From a virus (Duplodnaviria > Heunggongvirae > Uroviricota > Caudoviricetes), in the IMG/VR virus record IMGVR_UViG_2585427793_000015, positions 1-28,857 of that record: 28,857 bases of DNA, one strand, 5' to 3'. The notes under the pieces are model-generated. The model worked only from the letters and a program-made list of their open reading frames with translations. It was not told the origin of the DNA and did not search any database. Shown one piece after another: positions 3,012 through 28,857 of the stretch (its first letter is position 1; the number at the start of each line of letters is the position of its first letter). The position numbers and the translations under genes were made by a program.

Positions 3012-4075
3012 GTGACCACCGCTTTTGCTGATTTCTTCGTTTTCACTTTCATTTCCGGCATGTCCAGTGATTCAGGCGGAACCAGCGCCAGAACCGTTAT
3101 CCGCCCCTGTGCACCATCCGTCCAGGTCACCCCGGATATCAACCAGGTGGTTTTCAGGTTCTGAATACTGTCGTCGATATCAACAAGGCGGTTGGTCTGC
3201 CACAGCGGGCCGCTGTCGCCCTGTTCGCGCCAGCCTGCCACCGTGATTTCCGTCGTGCGGGCCTCTCCCAGCATCCGGGCTTTGAACCATTCCCCGCGAA
3301 TGCTGGCTCCACCCACGGTCAGACTGTCTTCATTGACCAGAATGCGCGGGCGGTAACGGTTAATTTCCGGGTCTTCGGTGATGTACTGGCGACCGCCCAC
3401 CATCGAGGCAGGCTGGCTGTCCCACAGTTTGCCACCGGCACTGGTGGTGCCCTTGATGATGTACTGACTGTTACGCTCCCGCCAGCTGAAGCGCCCACGG
3501 GCGGCGAGGATATTTTTTCCCAGCACCAGTGAGACACCTGCGCGAACGGAAGAGGCGCGGGTGATAATCAGGTTACCCCCTCCGTCAGACGTCAGCAGAA
3601 CGCCGCGCTGTTTTGCCAGCCGGTCGAGCAGTTCAAAGCCCGTTTCACCCTGTTCCAGAACGACAGACGCAAACGCCTCCCCGGTCGGGGTTTCCGTGAT
3701 GACGGTTATCCCGAACGGGCGGCAGACATCAGCCGCCACCTGTTCAAGCCGCACGCCTTTCCATTTCCCGGACGAATGCACCACAGAGCAGTCCACCAGG
3801 TCACCGGTTTTGTCGCGCCCCATGACGCGAATCTCCACGTTTTCTGCGTCATAGCTGGGAATAAAATCATCGATATACCCCGTCAGCACGGTATCCGCAC
3901 CCAGCCTGACCGTGCAGGGTTGCCCCTCACGAATCACGCGCGGTGCCGCCGCTGACCAGCGGGTTGTCACACTGAGATCAAACTCACCGGCAATCGCCTT
4001 CAGGGAACGACTGACGGACATTTCCGTCCAGCCTTCCCACAATTTGCCGTCAACGGTAAGAATCACGGAGCCCAT
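3002..4075 (-). CDS. Baseplate hub / late tail protein (Mu gp44 P, P2 gpD-like)
   Basis: 357-aa ORF between the N-like and baseplate V genes; size and synteny. Confidence 0.65.
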   Translation of the reverse strand: MGSVILTVDGKLWEGWTEMSVSRSLKAIAGEFDLSVTTRWSAAAPRVIREGQPCTVRLGADTVLTGYIDDFIPSYDAENVEIRVMGRDKTGDLVDCSVVHSSGKWKGVRLEQVAADVCRPFGITVITETPTGEAFASVVLEQGETGFELLDRLAKQRGVLLTSDGGGNLIITRASSVRAGVSLVLGKNILAARGRFSWRERNSQYIIKGTTSAGGKLWDSQPASMVGGRQYITEDPEINRYRPRILVNEDSLTVGGASIRGEWFKARMLGEARTTEITVAGWREQGDSGPLWQTNRLVDIDDSIQNLKTTWLISGVTWTDGAQGRITVLALVPPESLDMPEMKVKTKKSAKAVVTWD

Positions 4076-5349
4076 CAGTCGGTAATCTCCACAGGTTGCG
4101 TTGGCAGTATGAATGACGGATGGCGCAGGCGGTTACGCTGCACGATTTCATCCCGTCGGCTGGTGTCACCATGCTCGCGCCATGCCAGCAATGCGGCAGA
4201 TGTGGTTGTGGTCAGCGTCACCTGCCGGGTTTCCGGCAGACGGGCGGCACGCTCGCGGGCATCCGTAATCACGGCCTGCCGTAAATCACGCAGCGTTCGC
4301 CACAATGCCCGCTGGTTATTTTCCACCGCCGCGACCGCCTGCTCATGCAGTTCAGCCGCCAGCGCGTCACCGGCAGATAATGCCGCATCACTGGTATCGA
4401 ACGTCATCGAGGCCACGGCACTGGCCTGTCCCAGCAGGGTTTCCAGCACAACCACCTGGCGGAAGTCGTCAATGTTCTTCTGCAGGCTGTCAGATACCGG
4501 CTGATAATCCGCTGACAGCCCGATGGCAAAGCCGATTTCACCGTCTGCCACGCTGCCGGGCTTCACGGTGATATCTTCCGGCAGTGCGCCAGTGGCAACC
4601 TGTCGGGCGCGCTCTCCGGCCCACTGGTTGCGTAATGTCGTGTAAACCGCCAGTGCTTCGGGTGATTCCGTCACCAGATCAACCACGCCGTCAATGAGCG
4701 AGGACAGCTCACTGACCAGACGACCCGGCGTGGCAATAATGGTTCCGGCCATCTCCTTAAAATGGTTCAGCCTGTCCATCCACTGATTCAGTGCCGTCGG
4801 TAACGTGGGCAGGTTGGCCACAAGGTTTTCCATATCGGCCAGAAAGCTGTCGGCCATCTCACCCAGCCCGTCAGGTGCACCGAACCAGTTGCCATCGTCA
4901 ATGGCCGCTTTTACCGCATCAATGCCCGTCAGCACTTCCTGCTGCGTGTTATCCGCCGCAGACGGGAACAGACGCTCGCCTGCCTCAAACACTTCAAATG
5001 TGACATACGCAATGCCGTCTTCCTCCGTGCTGAGGCGATGGGTGACCTTGCCAACCTGTACGGTCTGTATCCCGAACCACGGATGGATAAGCTCGCCGGG
5101 GCCGGGGGGATTGAGCGCATCTAAAAGGGCGTTTAAATCAGCCTGGAAGTTGCTACCCAACAGCTTCGCGTTAATCTGCTGTTGCCCCGGAACGGCCCCG
5201 TTATCATCCGTCCAGGCGGTTTCACGCCGGGGATAAGCACGGGGAATGGCACGACGGCCACCTGTGCCTTCCGTATCCACCAGAAAAAAAGGGACACCGC
5301 GAAACGAGGCGTCGCGCAGCCCGTCCCATTTGCCTTTGCTTGTTGTCAT
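4075..5349 (-). CDS. DNA circularization protein N-like (Mu gp43)
   Basis: 424-aa ORF immediately downstream of the tape measure gene (1-nt overlap); size and position as Mu N. Confidence 0.6.
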   Translation of the reverse strand: MTTSKGKWDGLRDASFRGVPFFLVDTEGTGGRRAIPRAYPRRETAWTDDNGAVPGQQQINAKLLGSNFQADLNALLDALNPPGPGELIHPWFGIQTVQVGKVTHRLSTEEDGIAYVTFEVFEAGERLFPSAADNTQQEVLTGIDAVKAAIDDGNWFGAPDGLGEMADSFLADMENLVANLPTLPTALNQWMDRLNHFKEMAGTIIATPGRLVSELSSLIDGVVDLVTESPEALAVYTTLRNQWAGERARQVATGALPEDITVKPGSVADGEIGFAIGLSADYQPVSDSLQKNIDDFRQVVVLETLLGQASAVASMTFDTSDAALSAGDALAAELHEQAVAAVENNQRALWRTLRDLRQAVITDARERAARLPETRQVTLTTTTSAALLAWREHGDTSRRDEIVQRNRLRHPSFILPTQPVEITD

Positions 5350-7205
5350 TACCCTTGCTCCACGCTGGTGACGCCAGCCTGCGCACTGAGTCTGACGCCG
5401 GGTTGATCCACTCTGACGCTTTTCACGCGGGCGTCACCTTCCACCACCACACGGATTTCCCCCTGCAATTGCTGCGGAAGGAAAGGATAATTCTGTGTGG
5501 GTTGCATACCTGCCCACGGTCGCGGGTCGGCAATGTTCTTGTCACCCAGTGAATTGAACCAGTCTGTTACCTTACGCCAGACGGATTCCAGTGCTTTCTG
5601 GTTGTCCTGGCTTTGTTGCGCGAACTCGCGCTCCCACGGGCTGGCGTCAGTGGCACCGGCAACGGATTTAGTGAGCGTGTCAACCTCGCCCGGCAGGGCG
5701 TGTTGCGTGGTCAGAAAATCGTAAAATTCCAGACCAGCAGCAATGATGCCTGCACCTTTACCTGCCTTTCCTCCACGGTTCCCCGGACCTTGTGGATTGC
5801 GGGAGTTACGGGGATTGCGCGATGAATCCGGCGCATCCGGCAGACCACCGGTATTACCCTTCATCCCGCCACTGCCCATATTGACCACATAAACCGGCAT
5901 CACACCGGAGCCGAAAACATCCGTAATGCCGCCGGGTATCCCTTTGCCTTTCTCTTTGGGATTCATGATGTCGTGAATGGTTTTACCGAACTGGTACGTC
6001 TTTCTGATGGCGATAATGCCACCCAGCGCGATCGCCATATACTTACCGACCTGCAACCAGTTCTGGACAGTGTTCTGGTCCACGCTGTTGAGCGCATCAG
6101 CCAGTTCCTGAACGGGCTTTGCCAGTTGTCCTTCAGCAAAACGTTGCCATTCGTTATTCAGTGATTGCATTGCAGCATTAAAGCCTTCGGCATTGGTCTG
6201 TGCGGCCTTTTGCGTGGAACCCAGATCAATCGTGCCGTAAATCATTTGTTCCATCAGTTGCCGGTTTTCAGGGTTGAGCAGCGCCTTAATCCCCTGCATC
6301 CCGGTCAGATCAAACACATCCTGAAGTTTCAGCGGGTCGTATTTGGCCCGTTTAAGGATTTCCATCATCAGCTCATAGGGCTTTTTGATGTCTTTTGTGC
6401 CTTTGACAAAAACGTCAATGCCGTTTTTTTTCAGGAACTCAATGTTCTTTTTGTCCGACAGGGAGGCATACATGGCCTGAATACTGGTTACCGTCTCATC
6501 AATGCTGCCTTTGTTTTTGGCGAACACCTGAGCAAATGCCCCCATCTGGGCAATGGCTTCCGGTCCCTGATCCTGAATGATGGAAAACAGTTTCGGGGCA
6601 GCGCGGGCAACATCGGCAACGCTGACAGACCCCACTGCGAACTGCGAATACAGCCTGTCCATCATGTTATTGACCGCATCAGCACCCCGAACGTTTTTTT
6701 CCCAGAACTGGGCCATCAGCCCGGCTGCAACCTGTCCGTCAACACCGAACGCCTGCATCATCAACCCCATGTTGCGGAGGTTGTCCACCACATACTGATA
6801 ATCACCGGTTTTCCCCAGAAGTTCGCTGGCCCCCTGACCAAGCGCAGAGGCATCAATACGAATATCTTTCTGGTTCGATACATCCCTGATTTTGTCGTGA
6901 AGCGTCTTTACCTGTTCAGTGGTTAACTGGGCATCCGTACCCATCCGGCGCATCTGCGCATCAAAATCGGCAACCTGTTTGATAGTAAGACTACTGCCAA
7001 GCCCGGCTATCATTGCCGTGTAGCGGTTACCCAGCACGTCGAGGCCACGTGTGGCAGATTCCGTAGTGGCTTTAACAAGGCGCATAGCCTTCTGATGGTT
7101 CCGGGCGAACTGCGACATGTTTGCGCCGTATTGCCGGGCTTTGGCGGTCAGGTTCCCGGCAAGGTTGATCATGATTTCCGTGCTGAGACGGTTACCTGTT
7201 GCCAT
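5349..7205 (-). CDS. Tail tape measure protein
   Basis: 618-aa ORF, Ala/Gly/Gln-rich with predicted helical segments and a glycine-rich C-terminus (GSGGMKGNTGG); follows the tail chaperone gene. Confidence 0.75.
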   Translation of the reverse strand: MATGNRLSTEIMINLAGNLTAKARQYGANMSQFARNHQKAMRLVKATTESATRGLDVLGNRYTAMIAGLGSSLTIKQVADFDAQMRRMGTDAQLTTEQVKTLHDKIRDVSNQKDIRIDASALGQGASELLGKTGDYQYVVDNLRNMGLMMQAFGVDGQVAAGLMAQFWEKNVRGADAVNNMMDRLYSQFAVGSVSVADVARAAPKLFSIIQDQGPEAIAQMGAFAQVFAKNKGSIDETVTSIQAMYASLSDKKNIEFLKKNGIDVFVKGTKDIKKPYELMMEILKRAKYDPLKLQDVFDLTGMQGIKALLNPENRQLMEQMIYGTIDLGSTQKAAQTNAEGFNAAMQSLNNEWQRFAEGQLAKPVQELADALNSVDQNTVQNWLQVGKYMAIALGGIIAIRKTYQFGKTIHDIMNPKEKGKGIPGGITDVFGSGVMPVYVVNMGSGGMKGNTGGLPDAPDSSRNPRNSRNPQGPGNRGGKAGKGAGIIAAGLEFYDFLTTQHALPGEVDTLTKSVAGATDASPWEREFAQQSQDNQKALESVWRKVTDWFNSLGDKNIADPRPWAGMQPTQNYPFLPQQLQGEIRVVVEGDARVKSVRVDQPGVRLSAQAGVTSVEQG

Positions 7206-20533: not shown

Positions 20534-21130
20534 TCACCCCCGCGTGGCGGACATGATGCCTAAAGGGGTATCGATGATTTCCAGACAGGCGTCGGTCAGC
20601 TTTTCCATGCGGTTAAACCAGCCGTTCAGGTATTTACCCTGGGCGGGTTTTGACTTGATGATGTCGGCATAAAAGCGGGAACGACGGACAATGCAGCGGG
20701 CCAGCAACCAGTCCGGGGTGGACAGACTCACGGCCTTACGGGTACGCGGGCCGATGATGCCGTCAGCATCCACATCAGCGGCTTCCTGCAAAATCCTGAT
20801 AGCTTTTTTAACGCCATGCTGAACGGCTGCATCGAACACAAAGATCGCCACGCCATCAGGCCACTGATCACATCCGGCAGGCAGCCAGTAATCGCGCCAG
20901 TAAATCTGCGCGACCTGTTCGCGGGTTAAATCCCTGATGCGGGTATCCGGTTTACCGTCGCCGCTGACATCGGTTTTGCCGTCAATCACACCGTCGCGGC
21001 GGTCAGAAATGCCGTATTTGGTTTCGCCGCCACGGTCAGTGGGGTCATTGACATAGACGCCTTCGATATCGGGACGCTGAATAAAATTCAGCGCATGTTC
21101 AAAGGCCGGGGAGAATTTTTGATTTTCCAT
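20534..21130 (-). CDS. Endolysin, glycoside hydrolase family 108-like with peptidoglycan-binding C-terminal region
   Basis: 198-aa ORF with an N-terminal EGVYVNDPTDRGGETKYGIS motif (GH108 consensus EGGYVNDP.D.GG.T..GIT) and C-terminal DG.IGP.T pattern; first gene after the intergenic hairpin/T-run element. Confidence 0.8.
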   Translation of the reverse strand: MENQKFSPAFEHALNFIQRPDIEGVYVNDPTDRGGETKYGISDRRDGVIDGKTDVSGDGKPDTRIRDLTREQVAQIYWRDYWLPAGCDQWPDGVAIFVFDAAVQHGVKKAIRILQEAADVDADGIIGPRTRKAVSLSTPDWLLARCIVRRSRFYADIIKSKPAQGKYLNGWFNRMEKLTDACLEIIDTPLGIMSATRG

Positions 21131-21141
21131 AAAAGCACCTG

Positions 21142-21170
21142 TGAAGCAGATTTAAACGTGGTCTGCTTCA
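21142..21170 (-). promoter_or_regulatory. Inverted repeat TGAAGCAGA-N11-TCTGCTTCA in the endolysin leader
   Basis: Perfect 9-bp arms, 12-40 nt upstream of the endolysin ATG. Confidence 0.4.
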
Positions 21171-21185
21171 TAGTGCCGGAGGCAT

Positions 21186-21209
21186 AAAAAAAGCCGGATT
21201 TACCGGCTT
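21186..21209 (-). promoter_or_regulatory. Conserved dyad element AAGCCGG-N5-CCGGCTT plus T7 run, copy 1 (upstream of the endolysin)
   Basis: Perfect 7-bp inverted repeat with a 5-nt loop, followed on the minus strand by TTTTTTT; centred ~70 bp upstream of the endolysin ATG. Either a Rho-independent terminator closing the early operon or an activator site of a late promoter, or both. Confidence 0.6.
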
Positions 21210-21229
21210 CATTGAATTAAAAAAGATGA

Positions 21230-21709
21230 CTACTCATCACCTTTGATGGAGCAATCTATCATCATATTTTTCCCCATAGGGAGAAACTTTGTCTGAATGT
21301 GAAAGCCCAGAATCTTATACGTTAGTCCGTAACCTTTAACTTTTGCTGCGGAAGCCACCATGTCAATAACTCGTTCCTGCTGTTCTTCAGTTAATTGACC
21401 AATTACAGATTCAACAACCCGCGAACATGCAGCAAAGGAGGGCAGAGCGCCTACAGGATTATCATCAAAATCTTTTACAGTCGTCGTTGAACTAACGACC
21501 TTATTATTAATCATAAACAATCCAAACTTGCTGTGAGCAGTTTCGGTTCCACCGTTCTTAATTGAATCGCCCCCTTTAAGAGGCTTCCAGCTATTTAGTG
21601 CAATGAGGTCTTTTTCGGCCAGGCGTTTTTTGATTACCTCTTCAGAGGGCAGCTTTGCCGCATTAGCGCAAAATACGCTCAGTAAAAACATAAGAGGAAA
21701 GTATTTCAT
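21230..21709 (-). CDS. Secreted/periplasmic hypothetical protein (moron; occupies the position of Mu C)
   Basis: 159-aa ORF with a classic signal peptide (MKYFPLMFLLSVFCANA/AKLP); visibly AT-rich; start overlaps the mor stop as ATGA. Confidence 0.6.
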   Translation of the reverse strand: MKYFPLMFLLSVFCANAAKLPSEEVIKKRLAEKDLIALNSWKPLKGGDSIKNGGTETAHSKFGLFMINNKVVSSTTTVKDFDDNPVGALPSFAACSRVVESVIGQLTEEQQERVIDMVASAAKVKGYGLTYKILGFHIQTKFLPMGKNMMIDCSIKGDE

Positions 21710-22116
21710 GGCTCATCCTTAAATAGTTGCATTTGATATTTTCCACGCTCCAGCCTTCGCATTCTTTTGATGGCCTGATATACCGTTTTGTAGGTCACTT
21801 TGTAACGCTGCACCAACTCTGCTACGTTTTTTCCATCAAAATCACGCCAGATGCGCATGTCTCTGATCAGATTTTCCAGTATTTTCCCTTTCGGAACATA
21901 TACCTGAATCCCTCCGATATGATTGCAAATTGCCACTACCAGCTCAAGAGAGTGGGCAGGGTTAACACCAAGCCTTATCAGTTCCTGTCGCAGCAGAGCA
22001 TTCAGCTCTGAAAGTAGCGCCGGGTAAACATATTTTTCCTGATAATCGTGAAGATATTCCAGAACACTGTCGTCCCGGAAGTCTTCGAATAAATCCTGCT
22101 CTTTCATCTGTTTCAT
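21706..22116 (-). CDS. mor: Mor/C-family transcriptional activator
   Basis: 136-aa ORF with a C-terminal Mor/C-type HTH region (GGIQVYVPKG...IRDMRIWRDFDGKNVAELVQRYKVTYKTVYQAIKRM); ATGA-coupled to the gemA-like gene as in Mu. Confidence 0.8.
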   Translation of the reverse strand: MKQMKEQDLFEDFRDDSVLEYLHDYQEKYVYPALLSELNALLRQELIRLGVNPAHSLELVVAICNHIGGIQVYVPKGKILENLIRDMRIWRDFDGKNVAELVQRYKVTYKTVYQAIKRMRRLERGKYQMQLFKDEP

Positions 22117-22664
22117 ACAGCAATTCTCCCGCTGTTTCGTGCGCGGGCATACGCACTGGTCAGTGCATCATAGCCGCGCAGCTCCCGCCCGGTTTCGCTC
22201 ACAGGTAAAGGCACACCATGTCGGGCAAAGGCGTCCCGGATGCAGCGCATATGCCACTGTTTGAGCGTTTCGAGCACAACCTGCAACGATTCCCCGTGAC
22301 ACCAGGCCAGAGTGGAAACACCCTGACCGCCATTACGTCTGGCCGTCAGGCGTTCAACGTATTTGTCCAGCGCGGCGTCGCTGATATCGGAAACGAAACC
22401 ATCAAGAAACATCTGCTGCCAGATTTTGTAAATCTTCTCGCGTGGTGTGACATGCCCCTTAAAGCGACGGCGGGGATGTTTTTTCTGCTTCTTAAAACCG
22501 CGCTCTTTCATGGCATCGAGCACCTGTTCCAGTTGTGCGACGGACAGTTCGCGGCAACTGGTTTTGCCTGTGCACTGCACCAGAAAGGCGCGGTAAGTGT
22601 CATCGTCGAGTTGTAGATCACGCCGGGCGACATGAATTAATTTAATCAGGGATGTGCGACTCAT
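22113..22664 (-). CDS. gemA: GemA-like regulatory protein (Mu gp16 family)
   Basis: 183-aa ORF with N-terminal LIKLIHVARRDLQLDDDTYRAFL, typical of Mu gp16/GemA-like proteins; immediately upstream of mor. Confidence 0.7.
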   Translation of the reverse strand: MSRTSLIKLIHVARRDLQLDDDTYRAFLVQCTGKTSCRELSVAQLEQVLDAMKERGFKKQKKHPRRRFKGHVTPREKIYKIWQQMFLDGFVSDISDAALDKYVERLTARRNGGQGVSTLAWCHGESLQVVLETLKQWHMRCIRDAFARHGVPLPVSETGRELRGYDALTSAYARARNSGRIAV

Positions 22665-23064
22665 TTTGCCCCATCTCCTTCATGCAGTGTTTTTCCACCC
22701 ATGCCACACGACCAAGATTCAGGTGACACCTTTCAAACCTGCACTCTTCCTTGTAGTGCGCGCTGTCCTCATTGAAAGGCAATAATTCATCCAGTCCGTT
22801 CGCGATAAAATCTGTGCGCAATTGTTCTGCTGCATCTTCGCCGTATGCTCCGATGGATTCGAAATAACTATAAGCATTGCTACATAATCCAAAATACCGG
22901 ACAAATAATTCCCCCTCTGTTTCTGGTGCACCATTTTTTAACCACTGGTTATAGGCGACATAAAAATCATAAAGATGTTTTCTGGTAGTGACAGATGTGG
23001 ATTGAATTTCATTTTTCTCTGCGTTATTCATTTCGTAATACCTCTTCGCAATAAAAGATTTCAC
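22642..23064 (-). CDS. Hypothetical protein (AT-rich accessory gene)
   Basis: 140-aa ORF, visibly AT-rich, Tyr/Phe/Cys-containing; no recognisable motif. Confidence 0.5.
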   Translation of the reverse strand: MKSFIAKRYYEMNNAEKNEIQSTSVTTRKHLYDFYVAYNQWLKNGAPETEGELFVRYFGLCSNAYSYFESIGAYGEDAAEQLRTDFIANGLDELLPFNEDSAHYKEECRFERCHLNLGRVAWVEKHCMKEMGQNESHIPD

Positions 23065-23360
23065 TGGATGCCAACCGCTACCGGAGCCGGTGAATAATCA
23101 AGAATGAGATAGCGCAGGACGTGGTCGGTGATATTCCAGCCACTGGAGCCACAAATAAAACGTCCCAGCCGGATATCGATATACGCCATCACAAAACGGG
23201 GCATTCCCTGTTTGCACATCTCGTCGCCCACTTCTGCAACGATGTAAACCGACTCGCAGGTCAGTACGCCTGTCGCAAATTCTTTTGCCAGTGCCGGAAT
23301 AGCATTGCCTTCCAGCCAGGGCAAAGAGCGGCGGAACGCGCCATTGAGCATCATCAACAT
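23061..23360 (-). CDS. Hypothetical protein, possibly the C-terminal part of a frameshifted gene
   Basis: 99-aa ORF, ATGA-coupled to the downstream gene; frame stays open upstream to a stop at 23388-23390; see the overlapping 23098..23589 ORF. Confidence 0.4.
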   Translation of the reverse strand: MLMMLNGAFRRSLPWLEGNAIPALAKEFATGVLTCESVYIVAEVGDEMCKQGMPRFVMAYIDIRLGRFICGSSGWNITDHVLRYLILDYSPAPVAVGIQ

Positions 23361-23589
23361 CGGGATGTTCCGTTGTTGCGTTTCGTCTTACTGGCGGCGT
23401 CGGACGAGGGCGCGGAACGTCATAAAATCCGTTGCATTCTGTCAGCATTCCGGCATCAACCGCATCACGCAGGAAATACACCATTGACGAGGGAGGCATC
23501 TTCATTTTTTCAGCCAGAACGCCACAGGTCAGACGCCCGTAAGCCCGTAGTAATGTGCTGACACCGTTCAGAATTTTTGCATCAATCAT
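23098..23589 (-). CDS. ORF with a plausible N-terminal winged-helix-like domain (about 58 aa), then an Arg/Pro-rich tail that looks out of frame
   Basis: 163-aa ORF; residues 1-58 look like a real DNA-binding domain, the rest is low-complexity and overlaps the 99-aa ORF in another frame. Likely frameshift, pseudogene or sequencing error near 23390-23420. Confidence 0.3.
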   Translation of the reverse strand: MIDAKILNGVSTLLRAYGRLTCGVLAEKMKMPPSSMVYFLRDAVDAGMLTECNGFYDVPRPRPTPPVRRNATTEHPDVDDAQWRVPPLFALAGRQCYSGTGKRICDRRTDLRVGLHRCRSGRRDVQTGNAPFCDGVYRYPAGTFYLWLQWLEYHRPRPALSHS

Positions 23590-23687
23590 TTTTTATTTCT
23601 CAGATATCAGATTCAGGCGCGAGCAATCCCCTGACGCATCGCGCCATAATTAAAAGAGTGTGAATTAATTAAATATTAATGGTGGTA

Positions 23688-24212
23688 TTAAATACCGGCT
23701 TCCTGTTCAAATGGAATAATAGAAAAATCTTCAATGCCCGATTTAACTGTAATTCCGGCAACACCTGCGACCGCTTTCGGCTCCAGTAAAATCGCCTCCT
23801 TGTTGATTTCCTGTTTCGTGCGAATAAAACGTTGCAGGCCAAGACGCTCCAGCGTTTCCATTACCGCATCCACACCGCGAATACTTACTGATGGTGGGCG
23901 CTGACGCCATGACACATCACCGGTGACCAGGTTTGCCGTCTTCACCTTGCCGCCGTTCGTCAGTTCGTCACGGTTCGCTTCACACCATCCCTGAATGCCT
24001 TTTGAAAGGGTTTCAATACTGGTTTTAAGTGGCGCAATCTGTGAGGCGTATTTTTCTGTAATCTCGGCGATAGCGTCATTCATTTCCGTTTCAAGTCGTG
24101 CTGCTTCGCGTTGCAGGTCACCAATCCGGCGGATATCACATACCACGGCATCTCGGGATTGCGGAACATAAGTCGCTGCGGCGTTCCTGATTCGTTTTGC
24201 TGACTTAGCCAT
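23688..24212 (-). CDS. gam: Host-nuclease inhibitor Gam (Mu Gam / Ku-like)
   Basis: 174-aa ORF, the length of Mu Gam, with conserved-looking blocks (VPQSRDAVV.DIRRIGDLQREA.RLETEMNDAIAEITEK...GWCEANRDELTNGGKVKTANLVTGDVSWR); CAGGAGC ribosome-binding site upstream of the ATG. Confidence 0.9.
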   Translation of the reverse strand: MAKSAKRIRNAAATYVPQSRDAVVCDIRRIGDLQREAARLETEMNDAIAEITEKYASQIAPLKTSIETLSKGIQGWCEANRDELTNGGKVKTANLVTGDVSWRQRPPSVSIRGVDAVMETLERLGLQRFIRTKQEINKEAILLEPKAVAGVAGITVKSGIEDFSIIPFEQEAGI

Positions 24213-24232
24213 ATAAATAAAGCTCCTGTTAA

Positions 24233-24532
24233 TTAATATTCGCTGTATACAATACTGGATACAGCACGATTGCTTAATTCCATCTTTTGGGCAATGACAT
24301 GAATAGCCAGCCCTTCTTTATAAAGTTCACGACACAAATATTTGTCGCGCTCACTGATTTTGTATACACACAACGATATTCCGTACCTTCTGGCATGTGC
24401 CCGGAGAGCGGTTGTGGCAACGTTCAGTTTTTTCGCCATTTCCTCGACGGTCATTTTCCCGACACTGGCTTCGATAAATTCCCGGTCTTCGCGTGACCAG
24501 CGTTTACGATTGCACTTCATTCCGGTCACCAC
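24233..24532 (-). CDS. Small DNA-binding protein with two HTH-like segments (second one Mor/C-like)
   Basis: 99-aa ORF; MTVEEMAKKLNVATTALRAHARRYG and ERDKYLCRELYKEGLAIHVIAQKMELSNRAVSSIV, the latter loosely matching the RD..I...(F/Y)..G....(L/V)A...Y.(L/V)(S/T)...(I/V) pattern of the Mor/C C-terminus. Confidence 0.5.
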   Translation of the reverse strand: MVTGMKCNRKRWSREDREFIEASVGKMTVEEMAKKLNVATTALRAHARRYGISLCVYKISERDKYLCRELYKEGLAIHVIAQKMELSNRAVSSIVYSEY

Positions 24533-24952
24533 TCAGTACAACAGGGGGGCGCGCAGTGATGCCGGAATATGCCGCAGCGATAACTGAACCGCTTTCAGGG
24601 CAAGGGAAGAATACGTCCCCTGCGTCCAGCCATTCGCCATTCGCCGGTAATCGCGCCAGATGTTCTGCCACTGCTCCCGTGCGTCCGGGTCTGACGCGCT
24701 GATGTATTCGCGGTCCATGACGTATTCCCATAAATCCACATTGAAAGCATTGCCAAACGTAATGGCGCGGAATACCGCCTCTCCGCAATAACGCGCACAA
24801 ATGCTGTAATGGTCAAATGCAATCAGGTAAGTCTTTTCGCCATACCCCTCAACTTCGCGCGCGCAAATAAACTCGCGTAAGTCTCCGCCATTGTTATTAC
24901 GCATTTTGATTCGAATTAATGCCTGGATTTCGTTTCTGATTCTGGCGTTCAT
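24533..24952 (-). CDS. Hypothetical protein (early accessory region)
   Basis: 139-aa ORF with an AAAGGAA ribosome-binding site ~9 nt upstream of the ATG; abuts the downstream HTH gene with no gap. Confidence 0.5.
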   Translation of the reverse strand: MNARIRNEIQALIRIKMRNNNGGDLREFICAREVEGYGEKTYLIAFDHYSICARYCGEAVFRAITFGNAFNVDLWEYVMDREYISASDPDAREQWQNIWRDYRRMANGWTQGTYSSLALKAVQLSLRHIPASLRAPLLY

Positions 24953-24981
24953 TGTCAGCGTTCCTTTCAGTGACGTGTTCC

Positions 24982-25230
24982 TTAAACTGTCGTTGTTGTG
25001 ACACTGCCACCCGTGATGACGCCGTCATTTTTCAGAATTTCAATGGCCTCATGGGTTGACTCGCAAACAATATCCCGACTTTTTTCCAGAACCAGTAACG
25101 CTACCATGCCAGCGAGTGTACCTTTATCGCCGTCCAGCTCTGCACTGTGTTCTACGTTAATACTGGTACGTAAACGCTGCCCTTTAACTTCAGATGTCGC
25201 ATTTTTGATTTCGATAATGACTTTTGCCAT
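24982..25230 (-). CDS. Hypothetical protein (early accessory region)
   Basis: Start trimmed to Met19 (MAKVIIEIKN), preceded by GAGGAA 7 nt upstream; ~82 aa. Confidence 0.5.
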   Translation of the reverse strand: MAKVIIEIKNATSEVKGQRLRTSINVEHSAELDGDKGTLAGMVALLVLEKSRDIVCESTHEAIEILKNDGVITGGSVTTTTV

Positions 25231-25262
25231 TTTGTTATTCCTCACAAATAAATAAGCCGTTA

Positions 25263-25490
25263 TTAACGCCAGATAATCTGGCAACCATTAAGGCGGGCCG
25301 TCCATACGGAACGGGCAACCCCTGATTTATGCTCCATAATCCTGACAGCGTTTCTGACCAGCTCCGGTGGTGGGCAGGTAATTTCAAGCACCGGACGGGC
25401 CACGCCGAGATATGATTCATTTACGTGACTCCCGTGCGCCTGTAACCAGTTCTGCGCATCCGTTGCCATTTTTATATTTCGTGACATCAT
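25263..25490 (-). CDS. Small hypothetical protein directly after B (position of Mu kil)
   Basis: 75-aa ORF with an AAAGGA ribosome-binding site; positional analogy only, no sequence motif recognised. Confidence 0.4.
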
Positions 25491-25505
25491 GGTTTATGTC
25501 CTTTA

Positions 25506-26456
25506 CTACCAGTTCAGTAATTTAGGGTTGCTGTAAGCCTCCTTAAAAGCCGCCTTAATGTGACTTTTATTCAGGGATGAACCGGCACCTTTCGCCGCCA
25601 GCCACGCATGATTCAGTGTGTGAGTCAATACACGCAATCCCCCGGGCTTTTCGGCTACCCTCATCAGCAGGTCCAGCTCATCTTCCTGTGTTACTCCCCA
25701 TGCTTTGGCTACAGCCATCACATCAGTCTTTTTCACTTTGCGCAGTTGTTTTGTCATGGCAAAACGGCTGAACAGACGGGCCAGTTCATCAGTCCCACGA
25801 CGGGTGGCATCCGCCATCTGTTTCGGGTTGCCAATTAAAACCATCCCCACGCCAGTGGCATCCTGAATGGCGCGTAATTGCTCCAGACCATCCACACTTA
25901 AGTGATCAGCTTCATCAATAATCAGCAGGGGGTTAACACGTCCACTGGTTTCTTTTCCACCGCCCAGTTTTCTGCGAATGGCGCGGGTTATATTCCCCTT
26001 ATTTCTTCCCGGATTATTAATTTCCAGCGCATATGCTACTTCAAGGAGGCATTCCGTTACGCTCGAATGTGCCGGAGCAAGAGTCACCATCCAGGCATTA
26101 GCTGTTTTGCGGCAATATTCCCGGGCAGCAAAGGTTTTTCCGACACCCGGTACGCCAACAACGACACTGATAATCCCGAGTGAGCGCACTGTTTTAAACA
26201 GCTCATGCAAATCACAAAATGTCTGGGTCTTCACAACGCCGGGGGCACCTGACAAATTCTGCCCTTTCTGCCATACCCGATACCATTCCTGTAATTTGTC
26301 ATACATGCCTTCAACATTGCCTCTGTACTTTCCTTTGCGAAGATCAGAGAGAGTTGCCGGAGACATTCCGGCTTCATCAGCAATATCTTCCTGAGACTTG
26401 TCGCCCTCGTTAATCAAAGCGTTAATAGTGTTGAAAACATCATCAATATCAGTCAT
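25506..26456 (-). CDS. B: DNA transposition ATPase B (MuB-like, AAA+)
   Basis: 316-aa ORF with an N-terminal HTH region, Walker A (GVPGVGKT) and Walker B (LLIIDEADHL); GGAGG ribosome-binding site 8 nt upstream; follows the transposase gene. Confidence 0.9.
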   Translation of the reverse strand: MTDIDDVFNTINALINEGDKSQEDIADEAGMSPATLSDLRKGKYRGNVEGMYDKLQEWYRVWQKGQNLSGAPGVVKTQTFCDLHELFKTVRSLGIISVVVGVPGVGKTFAAREYCRKTANAWMVTLAPAHSSVTECLLEVAYALEINNPGRNKGNITRAIRRKLGGGKETSGRVNPLLIIDEADHLSVDGLEQLRAIQDATGVGMVLIGNPKQMADATRRGTDELARLFSRFAMTKQLRKVKKTDVMAVAKAWGVTQEDELDLLMRVAEKPGGLRVLTHTLNHAWLAAKGAGSSLNKSHIKAAFKEAYSNPKLLNW

Positions 26457-26500
26457 AGTATTTCCTCCATCATTACAGATTTACTTTGTTTTCCTTGTTT

Positions 26501-26530
26501 AACAGTCCGTTACCGCGGACTGTTTTTTAT
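26501..26530 (+). terminator. Plus-strand intrinsic-terminator-like hairpin in the A-B intergenic region
   Basis: AACAGTCCG-TTACCG-CGGACTGTT followed on the plus strand by TTTTAT (GTT TTTTAT); on the minus strand the same hairpin is not followed by a T-run. Confidence 0.45.
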
Positions 26531-28618
26531 TCAGGCCAGCGGATCATCTTCTTCCTGCATGGCAAAAAGTTTTTGCATCCCCAGCCTGAAATCGCGTTCA
26601 AATTCTTCGTCATGCTCTTCTTCATATTCCGGTTGCTGAACTGCCACCACATTACCAACCGGGCGATAAACATTATCCAGCCAGGGTTCGGCCTGTTTGT
26701 GTTCCAGAATCTGAATACCTTCATCTTCAGCATCACGAATTTTTTCCTCAGCACGTTTGCGCATTCCTTTAATACGCTGCTGCTGTTTGTGATATTCCGC
26801 ACTGACAGGGAAGGCTGCGCGTTTATTCCCGTTCCATATCGCCTCACAGATAAAGCTGTCGTCCTTACGTCGTACCGTAATTCGCTCGGCATCGTGAATG
26901 TCATAGCTGATAAGTACCTTACGGCCATGTTCATCACGCAGCTCTGGCGCGTAGTAAATATTGTTCAGCCACTGGATTTCGCAGCGTCTTACCGGACGCT
27001 CCACCATCGGGCGGAACATGTCGCGCAGCTCAAGATCACTCAGCCACTCAATTTCAGTGTCTTCTTCCGCTAAGCGTTTTTTTCTGAACTCTGCCGGGCT
27101 GTAATGCCGCCCGTTCGGTTTCATCGGCAGCTCAGAATGCGGGCGGTTGTTGTACCATTCCACGCCTTCACGAATAGCCTCGATAAGTTCCGCCCACGAT
27201 GGCAGCTCGCGCATTGCCGCTTTCTGGCGGTCGTTCAGTGGCTTGTCCTGTTGCAGGGTGTTAAACGCTGAACGCAGATCACGGTTAAGTACACGCAACG
27301 ATTCCCGGTCAGCACCTTTGCCAAAATAGGTGCGATACCTCCTGGCTATACGCATCGGCAGCGTCCGGTTCAGGCGTTCAATAATGCCGCGCCCCTGTGG
27401 ATTACCGGCAATACCGGTAGGGTGTTTAATCCCCAGACGGGGCAGAATCCCTACGACCTCTTTGTCCAGCATGTCAGCCGTTTCACCAGAACCGTTATCC
27501 GAGTAATACAGAAACGGTTTTCCGTGGTTGCGAATGCCATGCCGTATCGCTCCGGCAACAGCGAACACGTTCTCGGCAAGATCAAGACTCCAGCCAACCA
27601 CAAACCGGGTTCCACCGTCGATCACAAACGTGACTTCTGGTGAGAATGGACGTCCGTGGATCGGATGCGCACATTTCAGCTTCATACCGTGACCGTCACC
27701 AATCCAGACATAATTCACTGGCATAACTGTCCAGTCGCGGCGGGGGAACCCTTCAAGCTGACGGGATTCACTGCCGGTAACGCGTCCTTTTTGTTTCACC
27801 ACTTCCGGCAATTTCTTCATGGCATAACGAACCACATCGTAAGAAGGCATCACCTCCAGCATGTACGGTTCGTCTGCATGGCGACACTGCCATTCCGCGA
27901 CAAAATCCTCGTAGGCTTCTGACATAGGTCTGCCGTTAGCCTGGCGATACTGCGCCAGAAACTCAGGCAGCCAGCTGATTTCCTCGACTTTCACTTCGTC
28001 GCGTTTACCAGGTGCCAGTAACAGCAACCTTTCAGCGGCGTTTTGTGCTTTGTTAAATTCAGCTACCCAACGTTTGAGCGTAATTGCGCTCAGTGTTCGC
28101 TCTTTCCCTTTACGGGCATTAGCAGTAATGGCCAAAGATTCCAGACGTTCTTCCAGGTTACCCTGCGCTAACCGAGACACAATAAAACGTATAGCGCTGG
28201 CACAACTGAATCCCGGCTCCTGGCTGATTCGCAGAACTTCACAGACAAGAGCAATGCGCGCTTCTGCAACTTTACGTTGATTTTCCGTAAGCGCATTCAG
28301 ACGCTCTTCTACCAGTTGTGGCGAACCGCGATATGCCTCAACAGGCTGTACAACATTTTGTTTGCGTTCACGCTTTACAGGAGGCTGGGTAGTTATCTCC
28401 TGCGGTGCGGTTGCCATCAGTTGAGCTACATGGCGCTCACGTAACGCCCGCTGTGTAACCGGAGGGAGGCAGTCGATGCTGTATTCAATGGTTTTTGAAC
28501 CCGCACGTTTGCGCCTGAAATGCTCAGATGAGGCCAGTTTCCTTATGGAATACCGCACCCCTTGCGCAGTTCCCGGCATACCTGGTAGCCCTACAAGCTC
28601 ATTAACTGACACAAACAT
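26531..28618 (-). CDS. A: DDE transposase, MuA-like
   Basis: 695-aa ORF with an N-terminal DNA-binding region (LPGMPGTAQGVRYSIRKLA) and a central catalytic region; AAGGTGG ribosome-binding site; immediately downstream of ner. Confidence 0.9.
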   Translation of the reverse strand: MFVSVNELVGLPGMPGTAQGVRYSIRKLASSEHFRRKRAGSKTIEYSIDCLPPVTQRALRERHVAQLMATAPQEITTQPPVKRERKQNVVQPVEAYRGSPQLVEERLNALTENQRKVAEARIALVCEVLRISQEPGFSCASAIRFIVSRLAQGNLEERLESLAITANARKGKERTLSAITLKRWVAEFNKAQNAAERLLLLAPGKRDEVKVEEISWLPEFLAQYRQANGRPMSEAYEDFVAEWQCRHADEPYMLEVMPSYDVVRYAMKKLPEVVKQKGRVTGSESRQLEGFPRRDWTVMPVNYVWIGDGHGMKLKCAHPIHGRPFSPEVTFVIDGGTRFVVGWSLDLAENVFAVAGAIRHGIRNHGKPFLYYSDNGSGETADMLDKEVVGILPRLGIKHPTGIAGNPQGRGIIERLNRTLPMRIARRYRTYFGKGADRESLRVLNRDLRSAFNTLQQDKPLNDRQKAAMRELPSWAELIEAIREGVEWYNNRPHSELPMKPNGRHYSPAEFRKKRLAEEDTEIEWLSDLELRDMFRPMVERPVRRCEIQWLNNIYYAPELRDEHGRKVLISYDIHDAERITVRRKDDSFICEAIWNGNKRAAFPVSAEYHKQQQRIKGMRKRAEEKIRDAEDEGIQILEHKQAEPWLDNVYRPVGNVVAVQQPEYEEEHDEEFERDFRLGMQKLFAMQEEDDPLA

Positions 28619-28620
28619 TT

Positions 28621-28857
28621 TTATGCCACCTTACGAGCGTAACGGCTGGGCCAGATCTCCTCCGGCGCAACACCAATAGCATCAGCAATAATGCGCTCAT
28701 ATTTGGGGCATTTGCGGTACAGGGCATTCTTTAACGAATCCTGGTTTAAACCGGCTTCAATGGACAGAGCGCGTAAAGTAAAACCTTTTACATGCACCGC
28801 CGCGACAACATGCGCGGGGTGCCAGTCCTGCTTAACAACTTCATTTATAGACATCAT
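28621..28857 (-). CDS. ner: Ner-like DNA-binding regulator
   Basis: 78-aa ORF with Ner-family motifs (DWHPA.V.AA...G.TLRALS...G....L.NAL.R..PK.E.IIA.A.GV.PEEIWPSRY); start codon sits at the window edge. Confidence 0.8.
   Translation of the reverse strand: MMSINEVVKQDWHPAHVVAAVHVKGFTLRALSIEAGLNQDSLKNALYRKCPKYERIIADAIGVAPEEIWPSRYARKVA

Follow-up and report, generated by a model that had tools for sequence, protein, structure and literature searches.

Small genes between B and gam in a Mu-type Escherichia coli prophage are orthologues of the semi-essential early genes of phage Mu

Introduction

Downstream of its transposition gene B, bacteriophage Mu carries a group of early genes (kil, E5–E8 and gam; positions 4315-6325 of NC_000929, also in M64097) that is dispensable for Mu growth and hence called the semi-essential (SE) region. 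This region has been described as largely uncharacterized, although its deletion removes the killing seen on infection by a replication-defective MuBam phage (PMC3820752, PMC3325207). Here we examine the corresponding early genes in a stretch of viral DNA of 28,857 nucleotides (nt), IMG/VR record IMGVR_UViG_2585427793_000015 (referred to as the window), in which four small open reading frames (ORFs) lie between a B-type gene and gam of a transposable Escherichia coli prophage.

Functions have been reported for some products of the Mu region. According to the literature on the Mu orthologues, Gam protects DNA ends and Kil blocks cell elongation. Expression of Mu kil is described as lethal to E. 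coli, whose cells become spherical rather than filamentous (Waggoner et al. 1989, cited in PMC3961180). The Mu protein Mup07 (NP_050611.1) is the product of orf63 and has been named Gnarl2, an identity confirmed in the supplements to that study (Silas et al., Nat Commun 2025, PMC12373910). Expressed in the wild E. coli strains ECOR1 and ECOR22, Gnarl2 shortens the O-antigen, seen as a downward shift of its bands, and raises T5 infection 10^5-10^6-fold. That study did not find its direct target; the remodelling of the O-antigen possibly serves superinfection exclusion or keeps progeny off debris (PMC12373910).

Results

Orthologues of Mu kil, gp7, gp8 and gp9 fill the interval

The small-gene interval between B and gam is very probably the promoter-proximal part of the SE early region of a Mu-type transposable prophage, with the order kil, gp7/E6 (gnarl2), gp8/E7 and gp9/E8, followed by gam. 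The early end occupies the right-hand third of the window and is read on the minus strand. All four genes are full-length orthologues of Mu genes, arranged as in Mu and sharing their strand with ner-A-B; at the DNA level, the module (23075-25491) has 85.6% identity to Mu 4312-6938 and 87.5% to SfMu. The upstream anchor, which lies outside the interval, is B (25506-26456, minus strand), encoding a MuB-type AAA+ transposition protein of 316 amino acids (aa). The downstream anchor is gam (23688-24212, minus strand), for which both the Pfam domain (PF07352, E=1.3e-43) and orthology, at 90.2% identity to Mu Gam, identify the Mu host-nuclease inhibitor.

The first gene 3′ of B (25263-25490, minus strand) starts 15 nt after the B stop codon on the same strand, which is the place of kil in Mu. 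Its 75-aa product is 91.9% identical to Mu Kil over 74 aa and matches the Kil family phrog_2743 over positions 1-75 of 75 (E=7e-42). Next comes the gp7 orthologue (24982-25230, minus strand), 82 aa from its ATG, with 74.4% identity to Mup07 over 82 aa and membership of the same family, phrog_10252 (E=1.3e-37). A mechanically called ORF at this place (24982-25284) begins at a TTG and has 100 aa, but its match to the PHROG family begins only at residue 19, which is the ATG, so that 82 aa is the correct length. The gp8 orthologue (24533-24952, minus strand; 139 aa) is 82.7% identical to Mup08 over its full 139 aa and matches phrog_3690 (E=8.2e-86), a family with no assigned function. The last of the four, the gp9 orthologue (24233-24532, minus strand), has 99 aa when read from a GTG, is 89.9% identical to Mup09 and matches phrog_323 (E=1.7e-26); PGAP and most gene callers prefer an ATG at 24520, which gives 95 aa.

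The region is thus far from new. Mu orthologues of these genes (kil, E5–E8) are annotated in M64097 and NC_000929, and the window holds an ordinary copy of Mu early genes that have been catalogued since the sequence of the Mu left end, M64097. Among complete RefSeq E. coli genomes, 92 of 5,426 have a match to the region; the prophages of E. coli TD225-C4 and E300082 match it over 3.5 kb at 99.9% identity, and the four genes show zero differences from their TD225-C4 copies. RefSeq labels all four ‘hypothetical protein’. An earlier note, made from the sequence of the window alone, had likewise presented them as unknown genes, and this has to be given up. It had also named kil as a function to be expected of the region without recognising that the 75-aa ORF is Kil itself.

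Compared with the SE region of Mu, the window is alike in gene content, order and strand relative to A and B, with protein identities of 74-92%. It differs in three respects. Mu gp6/E5, which lies between kil and gp7, is the sole Mu gene missing from the interval; the window gp7 is five residues shorter than its Mu counterpart and has a divergent C-terminus; and the backbone that flanks the module is non-Mu, with B at 41% and Mor at 60% identity, no C gene, and a late region with no nucleotide match to Mu.

All four ORFs are real genes under purifying selection

The ORFs of 75, about 82, 139 and 99 aa that had been listed after B are confirmed on the minus strand, running from B to gam, and their tight spacing is borne out by gaps of 15 nt (B-kil), 32 nt (kil-gp7), 29 nt (gp7-gp8), 0 nt (gp8-gp9) and 20 nt (gp9-gam). 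They fill just 24233-25490; the span first given for them, 23590-25505, also covers gam and a 98-nt non-coding spacer on the minus strand between gam and gp11 (23590-23687). Good ribosome-binding sites had been reported for all four ORFs. This holds for kil, gp7 and gp8, whose ATG codons are preceded by AAGGA, GAGGA and AAGGA at distances of 8, 8 and 9 nt, respectively, but not for gp9, where there is a weak GGTGA 5 nt ahead of the ATG and none ahead of the GTG. The gp8 stop codon directly abuts this GTG, which together with the weak ribosome-binding site suggests translational coupling to gp8, and gp9 translation may depend on it.

To measure constraint, we compared the genes with those of up to eight relatives (Mu, D108, SfMu, Yersinia phage Tongde, three E. 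coli prophages and one Klebsiella phage). The ratio of nonsynonymous to synonymous substitution rates (dN/dS) was 0.11-0.13 for kil, leaving aside one identical protein and one saturated comparison, 0.14-0.19 for gp7 (82 aa), 0.15-0.29 for gp8 (139 aa) and 0.15-0.41 for gp9 (99 aa); the same analysis gave 0.04-0.11 for gam and 0.14-0.30 for B. Stops or indels were absent from the four small ORFs in these relatives. When approximately 23-64 related loci per gene were aligned, third codon positions were the least conserved in all four genes, with identities at the three codon positions of 0.96, 0.95 and 0.78 for kil. Small size, the lack of a Pfam family for three of the four and the weak ribosome-binding site of the 99-aa ORF are what one might expect if some of these ORFs were chance open frames and not genes. 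That idea is refuted by the dN/dS values, which are well under 1, and by the codon-position pattern; the uninterrupted frames and the full-length PHROG matches (E from 1e-26 to 1e-86) also argue against it, and we attach practically no probability to it. Another expectation had been that the case for novelty would fail if the ORFs proved to be known Mu proteins or were not conserved as coding sequences; all four are indeed assigned to named Mu proteins, two of which are functionally uncharacterised, and coding conservation is upheld.

Kil and gp7 have Mu orthologues with host phenotypes

By orthology to Mu Kil, the window Kil is predicted to be a host-killing, cell-rounding protein. The PHROG label of the Kil family, ‘septation inhibition’, is taken over from the unrelated Kil proteins of lambda and Rac. 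The gp7 of the window is a positional orthologue of Gnarl2 in the same PHROG family and, by the same kind of analogy, would be a small non-enzymatic protein that alters the O-antigen. It differs from Gnarl2 (87 aa) at 26% of residues, and its tail is shorter and ends in a different C-terminus. The gp7 family as a whole is confined to Escherichia, Salmonella and Shigella, and its members usually have 87 aa. The idea that the genes belong to the host-takeover portion of the Mu early operon survives in spirit, in that at least two of the four genes have Mu orthologues with published host-modulating phenotypes.

The interval between kil and gp9 is a variable cassette slot

To see how the interval varies, we used gp9 to recover 80 loci from IMG/VR, 77 of which hold the upstream region and are informative. 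The gene kil lies upstream of gp9 in 77/77, and the interval between them has six contents. It is empty in 29/77 loci, which are divergent and mostly Klebsiella-phage-like, so that kil and gp9 abut or overlap. The other loci carry gp6 with a D108-type gp7 and gp8 (16/77), gp6 with a Mu-type gp7 and gp8 (10/77), a D108-type gp7 and gp8 (9/77), a Mu-type gp7 and gp8 without gp6, which is the type of the window (8/77), or a D108-type gp7 alone (5/77). The gp7 position is allelic: when the window (24982-25262) was compared with loci L001, L008 and L012-L062, we found the Mu-type form (gnarl2), a D108-type form without detectable similarity to it, and a further form approximately 40% identical to the D108 type. 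We infer that the kil-gp9 interval is a recombination-prone variable cassette slot in which kil is the fixed anchor and gp6, at least two gp7 alleles and gp8 come and go. To speak of a four-gene island, as the earlier note did, overstates its unity, given that kil is an anchor, E8 is more widespread, and E5, E6 and E7 form a variable cassette between the two. It was from accessory regions of just this kind that gnarl2 had been selected.

The co-occurrence of kil and gp9 in 77/77 loci made it attractive to view Kil and gp9 as a functional pair, with gp9 as a DNA-binding protein that would partner, regulate or counteract the toxic Kil, much as in toxin-antitoxin modules. The 29 divergent loci (40-55% identity, mostly of the Klebsiella-phage type), in which the two genes are adjacent or overlap, fit this idea; in L063, for example, kil occupies 3750-3989 and gp9 3968-4279. 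For this reason we ran a search anchored on kil instead. Among the 12 loci recovered in this way, taking one genome per species, just 4 carry a gp9 homologue, so the pairing is not obligate. In addition, infected cells are still killed when the SE region is intact, gp9 included (PMC3325207). We thus reject obligate co-occurrence and regard a Kil-gp9 functional pair as very unlikely; gp9 is instead a fairly widespread optional gene.

gp9 is predicted to be a tandem helix-turn-helix protein

The earlier note had seen two helix-turn-helix (HTH) segments in the 99-aa protein and had likened the second to the Mor/C family of activators. The two segments are borne out. Sub-threshold Pfam HTH matches fall at residues 9-53 (HTH_Tnp_1, RWP-RK, Sigma70_r4_2) and 60-94 (GerE, HTH_23, Sigma70_r4), and an AlphaFold2 model built from 18 homologues (predicted local distance difference test score, pLDDT, 77.6; predicted template modelling score, pTM, 0.44) has six helices, at 14-23, 29-36 and 40-49, and then at 61-72, 77-83 and 88-97. 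These form two tri-helical units (14-49 and 61-97) joined by a short, flexible linker. Taken singly, the units superpose on solved HTH structures at 0.9-1.6 Å root-mean-square deviation, and the best structural matches are the IstA HTH, the GcrA DNA-binding domain, the Tc3 bipartite domain, Myb repeats and Cbp1. In the PDB, Foldseek ranked the bipartite domain of Tc3 transposase highest (E=0.059), ahead of Cbp1, which binds CRISPR repeats, and of domains of the AraC type. In a viral structure library, many uncharacterised phage proteins of approximately 100 aa share the gp9 architecture (best E 1.5e-5).

The closest described architectures are therefore bipartite or tandem HTH proteins. Tc3 transposase (1u78), Sulfolobus Cbp1 (2lvs) and Myb R2R3/Cef1 are the top whole-chain matches to the two linked three-helix units of gp9, and Cbp1 is also its best, though sub-threshold, PDB and NCBIfam sequence match. 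These whole-chain matches are not significant, with the Foldseek value given above as the best and sequence identities of 14-20%, and gp9, at about 95 aa, stands alone instead of forming part of a larger enzyme. One homologue, from Pluralibacter gergoviae (P0023, 153 aa), repeats the first, Myb-like HTH unit at its N-terminus and hence has three units; this indicates that the family evolves by unit duplication, as do multi-HTH proteins of the Cbp1 type. Based on the model, gp9 is probably a generic tandem-HTH protein with predicted DNA-binding activity. Its two linked HTH units would engage neighbouring sites on the DNA, as in Tc3 or Cbp1, and the protein would serve as an accessory early DNA-binding or regulatory protein. 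A search for repeats in 21000-28857 gave only short, chance-type matches and no candidate repeated operator for gp9.

The likeness to Mor/C does not hold up at the family level. Like the Mor/C proteins (PF08765, 1rr7), gp9 is small, phage-encoded, predicted to bind DNA and equipped with an HTH of broadly the same class at its C-terminus, but its architecture is HTH-HTH. It has no match to Pfam Mor at E<=1, whereas the genuine Mor of the prophage (mor, 21706-22116, minus strand) scores 6.7e-30 in the same search. Aligned to Mor/C proteins with hhalign, gp9 reaches a probability of 0.43% over 17 columns, which lie in the first HTH and not in the second; BLASTP gives no relationship (E=1.4); and overall likeness to the Mor structure 1rr7 is lacking, as this structure stands far down the fold-search lists. 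What could be said for an island of four genes that are uncharacterised and serve anti-defence or host modulation, with the 99-aa member as a second Mor/C-type activator in the early operon, is that gp9 residues 57-96 weakly match phrog_836, ‘late transcriptional activator’ (E=0.0014, compared with 1.2e-10 for the window Mor), that gp9 and Mor both match the generic Pfam families HTH_23 and HTH_28, and that no C gene separates mor from the lysozyme gene in this prophage, so that a second activator would find a role to fill. The phrog_836 match, however, is on a level with those to many other generic HTH families. Because gp9 is rejected as a Mor/C member by Pfam, hhalign, BLASTP and fold, we consider this proposal highly improbable.

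The rank of the Tc3 domain in the fold searches raises another idea: gp9 could be an accessory factor for transposition, a transposase-like bipartite DNA-binding domain that stands on its own, binds at the enhancer or the ends of Mu and modulates transposition. It shows no sequence relationship to the MuA of the window (hhalign probability 0.2%), and a truncated MuA end-binding domain is rejected on the same lack of similarity. Equally good matches to GcrA, Myb repeats, sigma region 4 and small terminase show the fold to be generic, and the region is dispensable for Mu growth. A role in transposition is, in our judgement, unlikely, and gp9 is better described as a generic tandem-HTH protein.

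gp8 appears to be an orphan of Mu-type prophages

The gp8 protein has no significant match in Pfam, NCBIfam, PADLOC or the PDB. A word-indexed search of 5.8 billion proteins returned only relatives with at least 72% identity, from Escherichia and Salmonella, and an exhaustive phmmer search of 1.84 billion representatives returned 10 proteins: its own family, fragments, one apparently frameshifted copy and one repetitive chance match. We rejected the last two as distant relatives, as the ‘44%’ match P0053 reads as a frameshifted copy and P0058, a repetitive protein of 811 aa, looks like a chance match. An AlphaFold2 model from 13 close homologues had a pLDDT of 44.9 and was unusable. Judged by these searches, gp8 appears to be a constrained orphan confined to Mu-type prophages. 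It would be small and non-enzymatic and would act through binding to a partner from the host or the phage.

A probable single early transcript and a conserved spacer downstream of gam

Sigma-70-like promoters and intrinsic terminators occur in the region at chance frequency, with no excess; the coding strand has 0 terminator-like sites and a single promoter-like site, which is outside the island. This and the tight or abutting arrangement of the genes support a single operon, and the four genes are most likely carried on the same long early transcript as A and B, from the early promoter. A strong terminator-like hairpin is present on the plus strand in the A-B spacer (26501-26524), antisense to the early operon, with a 10-bp stem followed by TTTTATT; it would be predicted to stop transcription entering the operon from the B side. 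No Rfam family is found anywhere in the window.

The spacer between gam and gp11 is more conserved than the genes that flank it. Across approximately 54 loci, 23610-23690 has an identity of 84-99.6% per 10-nt bin, with 7/8 bins at 93% or above, compared with 76% at gam third codon positions. It carries ATTAAT-N5-ATTAAT, which occurs nowhere else in the window (0.02 occurrences expected), and a GGCGCGA/TCGCGCC hairpin without a T-run after it. The folding energy of the hairpin is not significant relative to shuffled sequences (z=-1.2), and the loop differences in SfMu and Tongde provide no clean covariation. The spacer could be a protein-binding, RNA-processing or pause site.

The module sits in a mosaic prophage

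Upstream of B, the early end continues with the A transposase gene (26531-28618, minus strand) and a ner-like gene (28621-28857, minus strand). Over the sole aligned stretch, residues 1-59, A is approximately 37% identical to Mu A, and B is labelled ‘AAA family ATPase’ in the TD225-C4 prophage. Downstream of the spacer lies a gp11 homologue (23061-23589; PF25754 Gp11_C, phrog_1949), which a 2-bp deletion at 23341 splits into two overlapping frames. At this site the window reads GCGGAACGCG--CCATTG and the TD225-C4 prophage, with an intact 531-bp gene, reads GCGGAACGCGCACCATTG. Since the site is not a homopolymer, the break reflects either a genuine pseudogene or a fault in the assembly.

Between gp11 and gemA (22113-22664, minus strand), a 140-aa ORF (22642-23064; phrog_6418 and phrog_2510, function unassigned) sits in the place of Mu gp12-gp15. 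It has no match in Pfam, NCBIfam or PADLOC and recurs in approximately 12 related viral loci at 59-79% identity. Beyond mor come, in this order, a 159-aa ORF (21230-21709) whose N-terminus resembles a signal peptide and a lysozyme gene of the GH108 type (20534-21130); the gene for the late activator C is absent from 20534-22116. Mu-like phages without C have been reported, and the window resembles them (PMC4553209). In the related locus L063, an endolysin likewise follows soon after mor.

The prophage as a whole is a mosaic: the DNA of its kil-gp11 module matches Mu at 85-87% identity, in contrast to B and Mor proteins of far lower identity. The GC content is 0.55-0.61 in the late region (1-21000) and 0.46-0.49 in the early region (21000-28857). 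By megablast, the late region has no match to Mu; its only match is a 72% patch to Klebsiella phage Kp4866-3.

Discussion

The gene content, order and identities described above argue strongly that the interval between B and gam is the Mu SE early region, and the result is a routine re-identification of these genes in an E. coli prophage. Several points weigh against reading more into it. The functions proposed for the window prophage are all transferred from Mu orthologues, and at 74% identity, with a different and shorter C-terminus, the O-antigen phenotype of Gnarl2 may not transfer to the window gp7. The searchable literature holds no published function for gp8/E7 or gp9/E8, although these are genes of a classic model phage, and among Mup06-09 it gives one for Mup07 alone. 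The low pTM of the gp9 model leaves the relative orientation of the two HTH units undefined, and the modes of action put forward for gp8 and gp9 are inference.

A bolder proposal would make gp9 a dedicated regulator of the early operon, with the gam-gp11 spacer or host promoters as its target, and/or gp8 a new protein that blocks a defence or envelope pathway of the host, and would make the slot a source of counter-defence proteins beyond gnarl2. This is a slim possibility.

These results have practical implications. Half of the ‘unknown’ genes carry names and phenotypes in Mu (kil and gnarl2), and the Mor/C idea can be dropped, sparing electrophoretic mobility shift assays on late promoters. 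The slot between kil and E8 has already yielded gnarl2, and its other occupants are thus reasonable candidates for host-envelope or counter-defence functions.

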